A stretch of 24,000 nucleotides of DNA from Streptococcus zhangguiae (GTDB lineage Bacteria > Bacillota > Bacilli > Lactobacillales > Streptococcaceae): positions 1,150,459-1,174,458 of the forward strand of contig NZ_CP072115.1 in NCBI RefSeq assembly GCF_017639855.1, given 5' to 3'. Under the pieces are notes generated by a model. The model was not told the origin of the DNA. It searched no databases and was given only the letters and a program-made list of their open reading frames with translations. The translations under genes were made by a program, and so were the position numbers. Below, piece by piece: positions 5,549 through 18,267 of the stretch (its first letter is position 1; every line of letters starts with the position of its first letter).

Positions 5549-5900
5549 AAACGTAGTGTCTAGAAAAGATTTTCTCAGCCGAAAAAGTAAAACTTAGAAC
5601 ATTGTCAGGAAATTTTTAGAAAAAATCGGCAGACTTAGACCATTGGCAAGGATGTTTCAATGAAAAATGCCAGACTTGAAAGCTAGGGAACCTTTTTTCA
5701 CAGAAAAATGCGGGACTTAAAACCGAGAAAGGAGATTTTTCGATGCAGAAAGCGAAACGTAGAATATCGTCAGGAAATTTTCAACAAAAAATGGCAGACT
5801 TAGACCATTGGCAAGGATGTTTCAATGAAAAATGGCAGACTTGAAACATAGTGAAGAAACAATGTACTATGTTTGACATCTCCTATTGGAAAAATGGGAC
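5549..5900. repeat. Tandem intergenic repeat array, ~41-bp units (array 2)
   Basis: Units begin with GAAAAA at about 5581, 5619, 5662, 5703, 5748, 5786, 5827 and 5889. The core is GAAAAATGSCAGACTTRRA. The 78-nt segment 5604-5681 recurs at 5769-5846 with 72/78 identity, an offset of 165 bp, which is about 4 units. Confidence 0.75.
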
Positions 5901-12424: not shown

Positions 12425-14254
12425 CTATTTTCCTTCTAATATATTCTTTAATTGGTAACGAAATTCATGATATGTTTCTGTCTTGCTCAAAGATTCAATC
12501 CCTAGTGGATTTTCCATTACCTTGCTGAGCACCTTCGAAATAATTTGATGTTTTTCAACCTCTCCTTCTTTCAGCGATACCATAAAAATGATTTTTGGAT
12601 AGATTCCTTCTGTCTTTACACCCTTTGGCAATAGGCAGACCGAGATGATATTCTTCTGTCCCTTCATCTCCATTGGGTGAGGGATTGCAATGCCATTGGC
12701 ATAAATTGTCGATAAGTAATCCTCTCTTTCCAATACCGAATGTTGGTAACCCAATTGCTGATTATAAACTTCTAATTCAGCTGCTAAATCCGATAAAATG
12801 GTGCGATAGTCTTCTTTCCCTTTAATGCTAAAGAAATCACTAGACAACCATTCAAGAAATAAGTCTTCCATAGAACTAGACCGCGAACCCCGAAAAGATT
12901 CAAGGTAACCCGCCATTGACATAGCATCTATATTTTCTTGAATTTCATCCAAATGAAGAATTGGACAAGATAGGGCTAAATTCAAATCAGTCATTGAAAA
13001 AACCAAATCCGGTTGAAACTCTTGGATTGCTTGATTTTCCAATAGTGAAAATGTCTGAATCAACGCATTTTGGAAGATACGCCTTAGTTTCAAGTGAATT
13101 AACTGAGCTATTCCTCCTCCAGAAGAACAAACAACTGCAATGCGGTAGCGTTGCTCTAAACGTTTTTGCTTACTTTTCTGATAGGGAACTAACATATGGG
13201 TAGCTAAATAAGCTATCTCATCAGAGGAAATTTGAATGTGGTACTCCTCCTCCAACCACCGAGAAAATTTCAAGGCTTCGTTGTAAATAACAGGATAATG
13301 TTTACTAATATGACTGGCATAGGGATTGATACTAACAATCCGCTTTCTTGCTCGTTCAATCAAAGCAGCAATATGTAAGCAAACGAGATTTAAAAACTCA
13401 TAATCACTCGAAAATTCTGTACGATTGATTCGATCAATTGCTTGAAAATATTCGCTGATTTTCTTTTTTAGAGATAGTGGACGTGTATCAACTTTCTGCT
13501 TGGTCCGAATCGATAAACTATTCTCGAGAAACTCCGATTTTTCTTTAGAAAAGAGTGCTTTCAATATATTCAAATCCTTCTGTAAAGCACCATTTAATGC
13601 TTCTATCGTAACAGTCTGATTCATTAATTCCATACAGATAAGAAATAGCAACTCTTGCTTTACTGTTTGAATTTCAGCTACATCAGGAATATAAGAGCAA
13701 GTCTGAAACCAGTCAAATAAAATGGTCTGTAACATAACTTGTTGTTCTTGCGCCACATATTCTACGATAAACCTATTACACGATTCATGATGTAGGAGCC
13801 AAGCTATTTTTTCTGCTAATGAAGCACAGATACGAATACCATAATGTGCCTTTCTTTCTAACACCAATCCTTGATTTAACAGTTCTACTTCTATCTGCTG
13901 AAGATCTTTTTTAATTTGGCTACTGCTACTTAATACCATATCTGCCAATGATTGAATAGTCATATAGTCCGAGGAAATCAATAATAAAAAGCATAATTTA
14001 TTTTTCCTCATCGCCTGACTATCCATTACATCAAAAGATAACGTTGCAAAATAGTCCTCAAATCTTTTTTTATCAGCAATGACAAGACGGTAACCTAGTG
14101 GATATTTTTCAATCACAAATCCAGATTTCATCTCATTTAGTAACTTAATATCATTTTGAATCGTACGCCGAGAAACTTTATACAAATTGGCCAAAGTTTG
14201 TTCTGGAGTATACTCGTTATTCAATATAGTAGATAAAACTAAGTCACTTCTCAT
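12425..14254 (-). CDS. PRD-containing PTS-controlled transcriptional activator (MtlR/LicR type: HTH - PRDs - EIIB-like - EIIA-like)
   Basis: 609 aa. The N-terminal HTH is YKVSRRTIQNDIKLLNE, followed by central PRD-like helices. The EIIB(Gat)-like loop is RIAVVCSSGGGIAQL, and the C-terminal EIIA(Mtl/Fru)-like domain contains ANGIAIPHP. Strong AGGAGG SD. Confidence 0.85.
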   Translation of the reverse strand: MRSDLVLSTILNNEYTPEQTLANLYKVSRRTIQNDIKLLNEMKSGFVIEKYPLGYRLVIADKKRFEDYFATLSFDVMDSQAMRKNKLCFLLLISSDYMTIQSLADMVLSSSSQIKKDLQQIEVELLNQGLVLERKAHYGIRICASLAEKIAWLLHHESCNRFIVEYVAQEQQVMLQTILFDWFQTCSYIPDVAEIQTVKQELLFLICMELMNQTVTIEALNGALQKDLNILKALFSKEKSEFLENSLSIRTKQKVDTRPLSLKKKISEYFQAIDRINRTEFSSDYEFLNLVCLHIAALIERARKRIVSINPYASHISKHYPVIYNEALKFSRWLEEEYHIQISSDEIAYLATHMLVPYQKSKQKRLEQRYRIAVVCSSGGGIAQLIHLKLRRIFQNALIQTFSLLENQAIQEFQPDLVFSMTDLNLALSCPILHLDEIQENIDAMSMAGYLESFRGSRSSSMEDLFLEWLSSDFFSIKGKEDYRTILSDLAAELEVYNQQLGYQHSVLEREDYLSTIYANGIAIPHPMEMKGQKNIISVCLLPKGVKTEGIYPKIIFMVSLKEGEVEKHQIISKVLSKVMENPLGIESLSKTETYHEFRYQLKNILEGK

Positions 14255-14263
14255 ACACCCCTC

Positions 14264-14277
14264 CTAAAACGTTTTCA
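14264..14277. promoter_or_regulatory. Weak cre-like palindrome overlapping the regulator SD
   Basis: CTAAAACGTTTTCA matches the cre consensus at 12/14 positions, with a perfect AAAACGTTTT core. It lies between a minus-strand TATAAT (14290-14295) and the AGGAGG SD. Confidence 0.3.
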
Positions 14278-14437
14278 TTTTGTACTACTATTATATACTG
14301 ATTAGCTAGAATACAAAAGATGAATATTTTCCTTTTTAATTTGAAAAAAGTAACTGATTCTTCCCCCTAAGCTCCTAAACAAGACCGTCTATTGTCTACA
14401 AACTTGACAAATTCACCCATCCTTTTTATTTCAATGG

Positions 14438-15018
14438 TTCGGGAAAAAACAATCCTACTAAAGCCTTACTCGCTCTTTTCTTGACAAGCTCGTGAAAGAA
14501 CAGCCCACTGGACCCTACCTCGCTCTATAATTTCTAGGCGCGGGAAAAAACGGTCCACTTCAACTAACCTCGCTCTGCTATTTCTGGGCGAGGGAAAAAC
14601 AGTCCGCTGGACCTTAACTCGCTTTCTCGTTTCTCGGCTCGTGAAAAAACAATCCACCTTTCTAACCACGCTTTTCTATTTGACAAGCGCGGGAAAAACA
14701 GCCCGCTGGACCTTAACTCGCTTTCTCATTTCTCGGCTCGTGAAAAAACAATCCCCTTGCTAACCACGCTTTTCCATTTGACAAGCGCGGGAGAAACAGC
14801 CCACTGGACCTTAACTCGCTTTCTCGTTTCTCGGCTCGTGAAAAAACAATCCACCTTTCTAACCACGCTTTTCTATTTGACAAGCGCGGGAAAAACAGCC
14901 CGCTGGACCTTAACTCGCTTTCTCGTTTCTCGGCTCGTGAAAAAACAATCCCCTTGCTAACCACGCTTTTCCGTTTGACAAGCGCGGGAAAAACAGCCCA
15001 CTGGGCTGTTTTTTATGC
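14438..15018. repeat. Nested tandem repeat array, 12 units of ~49 bp (array 1)
   Basis: Unit starts are about 14438, 14489, 14539, 14589, 14638, 14688, 14737, 14786, 14835, 14885, 14934 and 14983. Two subtypes alternate, giving a 98-99-bp period: A (CGCGGGAAAAACAGCCCRCTGGACCTTAACTCGCTTTCTCRTTTCTCGG) and B (CTCGTGAAAAAACAATCC..CTAACCACGCTTTTC..TTTGACAAG). The 4-unit block 14638-14834 is repeated from 14835 with only 3 substitutions. Confidence 0.9.
14989..15014. terminator. Terminator-like perfect hairpin closing the array
   Basis: The sequence is AAAAACAGCCC-ACT-GGGCTGTTTTTT: a 6-bp GC-rich stem flanked by an A-run and a T-run, so it is symmetric and potentially bidirectional. Confidence 0.6.
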
Positions 15019-15024
15019 TATACT
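15016..15024 (+). promoter_or_regulatory. Extended -10 (TGCTATACT) for the HAD-pepT unit
   Basis: A TGnTATACT motif lies 28 nt upstream of ATG 15053. The GAGGAGG SD is at 15041-15047. Confidence 0.4.
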
Positions 15025-15052
15025 AGTCTATAGAATACTTGAGGAGGTGTGT

Positions 15053-15868
15053 ATGATTAAATTACTAGCTCTTGATATGGATGGGACCTTGTTGAATAGT
15101 CAGAAACAACTGACCCAACCACAGATTGAGGCGATTCATAAAGCGATTGAAATGGGGGTTAAGCTCGTACTGTGTACTGGCAGAATGCTCCCAGGGGTCA
15201 AGCCTTATTTTGACCAACTAGGACTGGATGCGGAAAATGAATATGTCATTGTCAATAATGGCTGCTCCACTCATCAAACGAGTGACTGGAAACTGATTGA
15301 CTGGGCGGAACTATCTCCTGATGAAATTCGGTATCTAGCAACCTTTATTCCAGAAAGTGAGATGCAGCTGACCTTATTTGACGAGGAGCATTATTATGTC
15401 TTAGAAGATGAACCAAATGAACATTCACGGACAGATGCTCATCTTGTTTTTGTAGAGCCAACGATTTTAAGCATGGAGAACGCAACAAACCAGAGCCGTC
15501 ATCTTTTCCAAGCCATGTATGTCGGAACAAAAGAGGCCACTGATGCCTTTGAAAGCAACTATGCTGACCTACTCCGTAAAGACTTCGATGCCGTACGCTC
15601 ACAAGATGTCCTGCTTGAAATTTTGCCAACAGGTACCAATAAGGCTTCTGCTCTCAAAAAATTGGCAGAACACTTGGGAATCTTACCCGAAGAAATTATG
15701 GCGATGGGTGATGCCAATAATGACATTGAAATGCTGGAATTTGCTGGTCTAAGTATTGCAATGGGGAATGCTAGCGAGCTTGTCCAATCGTTGGCAGATG
15801 ATGTCACCGATAGCAATGATTGCGACGGCGTTGCTAAAGCCATTTACAAACATATTTTACAGCAGTAG
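15053..15868 (+). CDS. Cof-type HAD-IIB sugar phosphatase
   Basis: I trimmed track ORF 14954-15868 to ATG 15053, which has a GAGGAGG SD; the upstream part is read-through of the repeat array. HAD motifs are present: [10 protein letters not shown] (DxDGT), CTGR and [10 protein letters not shown]. 271 aa. Confidence 0.87.
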
Positions 15869-15890: not shown

Positions 15891-17111
15891 ATGAAATACC
15901 CTACACTTTTAGAACGATTCCTTGTCTATGTAAAAGAAAATACACGCTCTGACGAGACGTCCACTACCACACCAAGTACCCAAAACCAAGTTGAGTTTGC
16001 CCAAAACATTCTGCTTCCTGAAATGGAACGCATCGGACTTCAAAATGTCCACTATCTGCCGAATGGATTTGCCGTAGGAACACTTCCTGCCAATGCCCCT
16101 ACTTTGACACGTAAGATTGGCTTTATCGCCCATATGGATACGGCAGACTTTAATGCCGAAGGTGTCAATCCGCAGATTATTGAAAACTATGACGGAAATC
16201 CGATTGCCCTTGGGACATCTGGTTTTGAATTGCATCCAAAAGATTTTCCGCAATTAAACAACTATCACGGGCAAACCTTGATTACAACAGACGGAACTAC
16301 CTTGCTTGGTTCTGACGATAAATCAGGAATTGCTGAGATTATGACAGCCATTGAATACTTGGTCGCTCATCCTGAAATCAAACACTGCGAAATCCGTGTT
16401 GGATTCGGTCCAGATGAAGAAATCGGTGTGGGAGCAGATAAATTTGATGTGGAAGATTTTGATGTTGATTTTGCCTATACAATGGACGGCGGTCCACTTG
16501 GCGAACTCCAATACGAAACTTTTAGCGCTGCTGGTGCTAAGATTGATTTCCTTGGACGAAATGTTCACCCTGGGTCTGCTAAAGATCAAATGATCAATGC
16601 CTTCCAACTAGCAATTGACTTCCATAATGCTCTCCCAGAAGCAGATCGCCCAGAAAAAACAGATGGGTATCAAGGGTTCTTCCATTTGATGGACATGTCA
16701 GGAAGCGTTGATCAAGCACAAACAACATACATCATTCGTGATTTTGAAGAAGCTGATTTTGAAGCCCGCAAACAGTTGATGCTGGATATTGCTGAGAAGA
16801 TGAATCAAGCATTCGATACTCCTCGTGTTATCGTTCATTTGCATGACCAATACTATAACATGAAGAAAATCATCGAAAAGGATATGACCCCCATTACCAT
16901 TGCTAAAGAAGTCATGGAAAATCTTGGCATCACACCAATCATTGAGCCAGTTCGTGGTGGAACTGACGGATCAAAAATTTCCTTCATGGGTATTCCAACA
17001 CCAAATATCTTTGCAGGTGGTGAGAATATGCATGGCCGCTTTGAATTTGTCAGCCTTGAAACCATGGAAAAAGCTGTCGATGTCATTCTAGGAATTGTGG
17101 GACACCAATAA
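15891..17111 (+). CDS. pepT: Peptidase T (tripeptide aminopeptidase, M20B)
   Basis: I trimmed track ORF 15756-17111 to ATG 15891, which has an AAGGAG SD 6 nt upstream. 406 aa. It has the [23 protein letters not shown]-terminus and the HMDTADF and [12 protein letters not shown] motifs. Confidence 0.92.
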
Positions 17112-17925: not shown

Positions 17926-17951
17926 AACAAGCACTTTTTCAGGTACTTGTT
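17926..17951 (+). repeat. Degenerate copy of the terminator hairpin found at 18238
   Basis: AACAAGCACTTTTTCAGGTACTTGTT matches 18238-18263 at 25/26 positions. The stem has one C/A mismatch, and no T-tract follows. Confidence 0.8.
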
Positions 17952-18237
17952 CAGAACGTAGACAAAACCGAGATTTATTTAAACAAATTCAAAAGCTCTA
18001 CTAACTGAACATTTGATTTTCCGATTTTCGCGAGCAAAGCGAGCCACATCAGATACTTTTCGCTGTGGTAAAAGTAGGGAATGGGACTCAATTGTGATTT
18101 TGTTTAAATCGATTATCCTCGCTCCTTTGTTTCTGGGCTCGGGCTAAAATAATCCACTGGATTATTTTACTCCGCAGGAAGTCGCTACCGTCCACACCAC
18201 CTAAAAAAAGTATCTCAAAAAAACTTTTTCTTCAATC
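17952..18237. repeat. 286-bp intergenic insert carrying modules of the same dispersed repeat family (MITE/BOX-like)
   Basis: Three parts resemble other repeats in the window. 17955-18015 resembles 5549-5603 (AACGTAG...AAAA..GATTT...AAAAG...AACT.GAACATT). 18118-18175 aligns with array-1 units (CCTCGCTC..TTTCTGGGC..G..AAAA.A.TCCRCTGGA) and forms the hairpin AAAATAATCCACTGGATTATTTT. 18009-18037 looks like an inverted unit (its reverse complement reads GGCTCGCTTTGCTCGCGAAAATCGGAAAA). Confidence 0.6.
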
Positions 18238-18267
18238 AACAAGCACTTTTTCAGGTGCTTGTTTTTA
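18238..18267 (+). terminator. Intrinsic terminator (intact copy)
   Basis: ACAAGCAC-TTTTTCAG-GTGCTTGT is a perfect 8-bp stem followed by TTTTT. Confidence 0.7.

Follow-up and report, generated by a model that had tools for sequence, protein, structure and literature searches.

Intergenic arrays of short repeats that lie near gene ends and vary in copy number between strains are known as STAR in Staphylococcus aureus and as REP/BIME in enterobacteria. BIME-2 clusters alternate two unit types, and REP units, which alternate in orientation, have dedicated RAYT transposases. At the level of the streptococci, SPRITE is a dispersed repeat in which an 18-bp stem is followed by a U-rich tract, with AAAA/TTTT flanks and a GC content of ~28%, and RUP is an element of ~107 bp and 27.5% GC that is related to IS630-Spn1. 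The BOX-type layouts are boxA-boxB(n)-boxC in S. pneumoniae and boxE-boxB(n)-boxF in S. suis, and BOX-type elements with shared inner modules have been described in the latter species (Croucher et al. 2011, PMC3049150).

Here, a tandem array is analysed that lies in a window of 24,000 nucleotides (the whole stretch of DNA under study, positions 1,150,459 to 1,174,458 of contig NZ_CP072115.1) of the Streptococcus zhangguiae genome, which consists of a single 2.09-Mb contig. The array sits in an intergenic gap of 798 nt between the start of a PTS regulator gene (14254, minus strand) and that of a gene for a HAD hydrolase (15053, plus strand). It is one locus of a dispersed, genus-wide Streptococcus repeat family with BOX-like architecture, a relationship that was missed in the preliminary description of this DNA, made from the letters alone.

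Organisation of the array

The array occupies 575 nt and fills most of the gap, as had been described, and the following parts can be distinguished (positions are those of the window):

14440-15014: repeat array of 11 units of 49-51 nt and a truncated 12th, delimited by parsing the units at their G-rich/A-run heads
14440..14589, plus strand: three older, diverged units (starts 14440, 14491 and 14541), 64-80% identical to the remaining units
14590..14984, plus strand: eight alternating A/B units (A starts 14590, 14690, 14788 and 14887; B starts 14640, 14739, 14837 and 14936)
14985..15014, no strand assigned: truncated twelfth unit with a perfect hairpin (14989-15014) between an A-run and a T-run, found by folding

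The twelve head-to-tail units of the preliminary description are therefore eleven units and a truncated one, and the periods of 49, 98 and 197 nt proposed there correspond to the 50, 99 and 197 nt returned by Tandem Repeats Finder for 14481-15004 (scores 189, 764 and 811). The strict alternation of A and B subtypes holds from 14590 onwards, with an identity of 90-100% within and 60-67% between the subtypes. It had also been noticed that a block of four units is duplicated with only three substitutions. This is exact for the 170 nt of 14638-14807, which recur at 14835-15004 with substitutions at 14728, 14776 and 14793 and nowhere else; the second copy of the block diverges from 15005, where the terminal hairpin closes. 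The greater divergence ascribed to the left-hand units is reflected in their identity values, given above. The GC content of the array is 48.2% compared with 40.7% for the genome, and neither of its flanks (14255-14445, 15005-15060) recurs elsewhere in the genome.

A claim that did not stand is that the array is free of stop codons in several frames. Each of the six frames contains 5-9 stops, so the array is regarded as non-coding; the longest open stretch is 130 codons. Elsewhere in the window, at 5549-5851, there is a tandem array with a period of 41 nt (Tandem Repeats Finder score 136, 5.6 copies), the units of which have, by eye, no homology to the 49-nt units.

The module and its hairpin

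The module of the family measures 49-50 nt and is arranged head to tail. It begins with a conserved linker of ~27 nt (CTCGCT, ~6 nt, TTTC, 2-3 nt, GGCTCG, 1 nt, G). After the linker come an A-tract and a hairpin with a GC core, at the tip of which CC-ACT-GG is the usual sequence. At the HAD array, each unit comprises the linker, the A-tract and then the left arm, the loop and part of the right arm of the hairpin; the B-type units are a diverged variant in which the right arm has been wholly lost, and the full hairpin with its T-run is present in the last unit only. Upon folding, the internal units performed no better than shuffled sequences (z from -2.3 to +1.3). The terminal hairpin (14989-15014) reached -20.2 kcal/mol on the plus strand (z -4.4), where it is followed by T6, and -16.7 kcal/mol on the minus strand (z -3.4), where it is followed by T5. 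The terminal unit is also the only one predicted from its sequence to be an intrinsic (Rho-independent) terminator, that is, a stable GC-rich hairpin followed by a U-run.

Across the family, one strand carries a T-run only after the last unit, and the other presents a hairpin and T5-6 for each intact unit. Transcription across an intact array would therefore meet intrinsic terminators one after another when it runs in one direction, and just one when it runs in the other. The hairpin covaries between loci of the family. Changes on both sides were found in 9 of the 11 pairs, compensatory cells numbered 91 versus 29 +/- 5.6 in shuffles (none of 500 shuffles reaching the observed value), and the covariation score was 0.314 compared with at most 0.124 for slid partners. 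Behind one and the same linker, numerous different perfect stems are found, and stems extend up to ~12 bp, A-U pairs included.

Two further readings of these sequences were considered and rejected. That the array hairpin is a copy of the native terminator of the adjacent gene is contradicted by the rpmB terminators of 28 array-less species, which are unrelated hairpins; the hairpin thus belongs to the repeat and not to the gene. The TTGACA hexamers of the B-type units are not promoters, as they have no -10 partner; the hexamer is a variant of the linker 3' end that is common to the arrays of S. cuniculi and of a close relative, L175. No promoter-like site was found inside the array.

Distribution of the family

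A search of the genome and of related species with the unit consensus had been recommended in the preliminary description. A profile of the 99-nt double unit identified ~13 other short arrays of 1-4 units each in the 2.09-Mb genome, and nhmmer matches between the array units and other loci reached E-values down to 1e-12. The HAD array shares with these loci the linker, the A-tract and the covarying hairpin, in head-to-tail units of 48-51 nt, that define the linker-plus-hairpin repeat family. In 11 of the 13 other arrays, no more than ~40 nt separate the terminal hairpin from the 3' end of a gene that is read towards the hairpin, and in other species arrays are located directly 3' of rpsR, rpmB and an rpsT-like gene, among others. 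The HAD array is the largest of the genome, and it is only this array and that of pncB, described below, that abut the start of a gene instead of its end.

An exact-pattern scan of public genomes, with one genome per species, returned 114 loci, of which ~100 are in at least 15 named Streptococcus species and a handful are chance matches in unrelated MAGs. The streptococcal loci include those of S. mitis, S. oralis, S. pseudopneumoniae, S. infantis, S. australis, S. parasanguinis, S. suis and S. cuniculi; S. azizii, S. pluranimalium, S. equinus, S. infantarius, S. didelphis, S. vicugnae and S. hohhotensis also carry the pattern. A stricter tandem pattern was present in 48 of 244 Streptococcus species and in none of 56 genomes from ten other genera of the Streptococcaceae, and its reversed form, used as control, gave no match.

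Rfam contained nothing near threshold for the window array or for the intact arrays of S. azizii and S. mitis. Searches of the open literature with unit sequences returned chance matches only, and those on EFAR and RepSU1 nothing beyond the work of Croucher and colleagues. We found no description of the family, either in Rfam or in those parts of the open literature that could be searched.

The HAD/pepT locus in related species

The array is bounded by the following features:

12425..14254, minus strand: PRD/EIIA-type PTS regulator, the divergent left neighbour (Pfam PRD, PTS_EIIA_2, HTH_11)
15014..15024, plus strand: extended -10 element (TATGCTATACT) of the HAD/pepT unit, read from the sequence
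15053..15868, plus strand: Cof-type HAD-IIB hydrolase, downstream of the array (Pfam Hydrolase_3, E 3e-68)
15891..17111, plus strand: M20 peptidase (pepT-like), co-directional with the HAD gene (Pfam M20_dimer, Peptidase_M20; gene call from the identical locus L174)

The closest named cluster of the HAD protein is that of S. marmotae, with 98% identity. Upstream of HAD orthologs, arrays of the family were found in seven relatives:

L175 (93.8% nucleotide identity to this genome): 3 units
S. respiraculi: 3 units
S. acidominimus: 3 units
S. cuniculi CCUG 65085: ~5 units
S. cuniculi WM131: ~5-6 units
S. azizii: ~8 units
Streptococcus sp. LysM4 (L211:701-1460): at least 16 units, of two alternating subtypes

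The variability in copy number that had been suspected is therefore real: the locus holds 3 units in some relatives and at least 16 in another. The unit variants are species-specific and homogenised within each species. In the LysM4 array, a different conserved linker replaces the usual one, and the A-tract and the head of the hairpin are retained. The three left units of the window array resemble the 3-unit HAD array of S. respiraculi and the units of the pncB array of S. cuniculi. In agreement with the preliminary proposal that the array grows at its right end, the units on the right are the younger ones and those on the left match the short arrays of S. respiraculi.

At its right side, the junction with the promoter is conserved. 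The TATGCTATACT element begins at the last T of the T-run of the terminal hairpin, and in all seven relatives the hairpin position and its T-run abut TATGCTATACT and the conserved 5' leader; the hairpin itself is intact in six of them and degenerate in S. acidominimus. The same TATGCTATACT and 5' leader are found ~30 nt upstream of the HAD orthologs of 14 more distant streptococci, all of which are devoid of an array.

On the left side, the flank could be read in four relatives (L175, S. respiraculi, S. cuniculi WM131 and S. acidominimus), and in none of them is the neighbour that of this genome, so that the array coincides with a break in synteny, or a junction of accessory genes. To the left of ~14440 there is a PTS operon in this genome, there are AraC/GH1/GH3 genes in L175, and different genes again occupy this place in the remaining three relatives; the 2.8 kb of left flank available for L175 have no homolog here. 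Neither the PTS regulator nor its upstream region of ~130 nt is linked to the array in relatives; in S. cuniculi WM131, the ortholog of the regulator is found on a different contig, where no array accompanies it. The WM131 contig that carries the HAD array ends 176 nt beyond the array.

These comparisons bear on the idea, put forward in the preliminary description, that the array is a spacer or insulator between two divergent promoters. In such a role, the number of units would set the distance or topology between the promoters of the PTS regulator and of HAD/pepT, and changes in copy number would tune expression. The array does lie between divergent genes in this genome, and copy number does differ strongly among relatives. 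However, the divergent pairing with the PTS gene occurs in this genome only: where the left flank of a relative could be read, which was so in four cases, an unrelated neighbour was found, co-directional in two of the four. The conserved upstream region of the regulator ends ~130 nt from its start, short of the array, the array has no promoter-like site inside, and the family is normally found at the 3' ends of genes. The spacer arrangement is not conserved, and a role of this kind is considered improbable. The feature that the locus has conserved is the terminal hairpin abutting the HAD promoter.

Origin and probable role of the array

Family membership, covariation of the hairpin, turnover of copy number and conservation of the promoter junction are directly observed, and the reading that we regard as likely for the locus is built around them. 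The array would be satellite-like, with a seed that is ancestral to the clade and with growth by unequal recombination or slippage; its internal units would have decayed and be probably inert, and its terminal hairpin would most likely be a bidirectional terminator that insulates the HAD/pepT promoter. The starting point may have been an array of ~3 units with a terminal hairpin directly upstream of the -10 element of HAD/pepT, in the ancestor of the clade formed by S. marmotae, S. respiraculi, S. cuniculi, S. acidominimus and S. azizii. As for its enlargement in this genome, we infer from the pattern of the units that unequal recombination or replication slippage led from AB to ABAB and from there to ABAB twice, a sequence of steps that would explain the periods of 49, 99 and 197 nt as well as the position of the youngest copies beside the terminal hairpin. 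The hairpins of the internal units have been lost, and these units now probably represent neutral DNA. What has been kept is the terminal hairpin, which most likely shields the HAD/pepT promoter from read-through and does the same for the PTS regulator on the opposite side; this terminator activity is deduced from its fold and its T-runs.

Some observations do not fit easily with this reading. The conservation of the linker throughout the genus is at odds with a purely neutral model, which leaves it unexplained. In addition, the HAD array is atypical for the family, being the largest and abutting the start of a gene, and this counts against the satellite-like explanation of the locus. An array has also persisted here in species that have diverged to no more than 82-89% identity in the HAD protein, and this persistence could reflect selection beyond the last hairpin.

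The 291-nt element and the pncB array

The module is not confined to arrays. A BLAST search with a consensus revealed, in this genome, 30 full copies of a non-coding element of 291 nt, with identities of 82-98.6%, and the central module of this element, homologous to the array units, gave ~35 profile matches. Variants of the element contain 0, 1 or 2 copies of the central module, which results in a BOX-like architecture, and the element gives the module two different terminal bounds. When the flanks of the 30 full copies were inspected, duplicated local hairpins of 18-26 nt were evident at many of them. The element therefore appears to insert into terminator hairpins and to duplicate them, as the copy present in the window illustrates:

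17952..18239, plus strand: copy of the 291-nt family, found by nhmmer and BLAST, in the terminator of an XRE gene, the hairpin of which is duplicated (17926-17951 and 18238-18263)

The corresponding empty site in L175 has a single hairpin. No partner transposase of the element was found. Partial copies that were taken as candidates for an autonomous partner turned out to be merely interrupted by an unrelated 2.2-kb IS. This IS, with an ORF of 452 aa, is present in at least six copies of ~97% identity (genome contig 1008388-1011262 and five other places), one of which interrupts a copy of the 291-nt element.

The second array that abuts a gene start is located at 578783-579744 of the genome contig. 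It has 4-5 units, and its terminal hairpin abuts TTTTTATGCTATACT, upstream of pncB; a copy of the 291-nt element has since been inserted there, with duplication of the hairpin. The corresponding position at pncB is occupied in S. cuniculi CCUG 65085 by an array of 11 units (L057:7008-7556). The units of this S. cuniculi array resemble the HAD array of the window more than they resemble the pncB array of this genome, and this suggests, as far as sequence similarity can tell, an exchange between arrays. The TATGCTATACT element also follows the pncB array, both here and in S. cuniculi. That TATGCTATACT at HAD is part of the repeat was nonetheless ruled out, as the array-less distant species keep the promoter and the 5' leader.

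The behaviour of the 291-nt element raises the question of whether the arrays derive from an active process of the same type, in which the linker would be a minimal mobile element that repeatedly inserts at a terminator hairpin with preference for its structure and duplicates it. The duplicated hairpins of 18-26 nt at many copies of the element and the confirmed empty site speak for such a process, as does the fact that the hairpins of one array are alike and those of different arrays are not, with a linker that is conserved across species. It is countered by the higher-order duplication of 197 nt, which cannot arise from insertions of single units, and by the rpmB terminators of the 28 array-less streptococci, which are unrelated to the array hairpin, so that the latter is not simply a duplicated native terminator. 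Moreover, a single array can contain unlike hairpins, examples being the rpsR arrays of S. mitis, and a partner transposase was not detected. As an account of the HAD array, active insertion of this kind is quite unlikely. A broader possibility, which we hold to be unlikely too though somewhat easier to entertain, is that the linker is the recognition site of a structure-specific DNA transaction that targets terminator hairpins and duplicates them, moves the 291-nt element, seeds or extends the arrays and leaves hotspots of accessory-gene exchange behind.

A source of structured RNA was another of the roles suggested for the array in the preliminary description. Either the array or its intact relatives would be transcribed as functional small RNAs, or as a structured 3' or 5' UTR, with one RNA module per unit. 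The hairpin covaries across the family, and the terminator of the terminal unit could define the 3' end of such an RNA. Yet the covarying hairpin and its T-run are equally well explained by terminator function or by a requirement at the DNA level, the poor folding of the internal units makes structured RNA unlikely for these, the array has no promoter-like site, and Rfam gave no near-threshold match even for the intact arrays of other species. A function as RNA is hence judged very unlikely. Lastly, an assembly artefact, through expansion or collapse of the repeat by the assembler, is extremely improbable: short-read assemblies often break at such arrays (as in S. cuniculi WM131), but this genome is a single contig, the separate draft assembly GCA_009707175.1 (217-kb contig; possibly from the same reads) is 100% identical over 6.8 kb including the entire array, the substitutions that distinguish the units form a consistent hierarchy, and similar or larger arrays are present in complete genomes of relatives. 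The draft is the sole other assembly with an identical HAD protein, so that the within-strain comparison consists of this one pair, which matches throughout, the 798-nt intergenic region included.

Implications

The family is found in about one fifth of the sampled Streptococcus species, including members of the mitis, parasanguinis, bovis/equinus and suis groups. Once annotated, it would account for many intergenic arrays that are now orphans and for many points at which streptococcal assemblies break into contigs. With 3 to at least 16 units at one locus between close relatives, the arrays could serve as markers of the VNTR type. They are also places where synteny breaks. Most of the array described here is probably inert.

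Comparison with known repeat systems

In architecture, the family resembles BOX and the BOX-type elements of S. suis, with which it shares the condition of small, modular, non-coding intergenic repeats and an inner module of ~45-50 nt in variable tandem copies. In S. suis, there are free arrays of the family (L017) as well as a homolog of the module, in reverse orientation, within a boxA...boxC composite (L169). The preliminary description had set the array apart from BOX, RUP and SPRITE, and this is upheld, by sequence for the pneumococcal BOX and by composition (~28% versus 48% GC) for the other two. The pneumococcal boxA, boxB and boxC modules, represented by 12 copies from the S. mitis group, are unrelated to the array units, and there was no match in this genome to the BOXA1R site with up to three mismatches. 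Unlike BOX, the HAD array is without two terminal modules, its flanks being unique, and its units carry a hairpin of the terminator type.

SPRITE resembles the units described here in having a stem and a U-rich tract between AAAA and TTTT. By its description, it is a single element for which arrays are not described, whereas the present units are tandem, of 49-50 nt and 48% GC, with a conserved linker and with stems of up to ~12 bp in place of 18 bp. RUP, for which tandem arrays are not described either, is likewise set apart by description, the unit here being of 49-50 nt, tandem and of 48% GC. The array had also been said not to be a CRISPR, and its pattern alone confirms this, since the whole unit is repeated and there are no unique spacers.

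Outside the streptococci, STAR, REP and BIME differ from the present family in that their sequences are unrelated to it and in that all units here are direct repeats. We know of no dedicated enzyme for these units. The array reveals no new principle, and belongs with BOX, SPRITE, STAR and BIME in one broad class.
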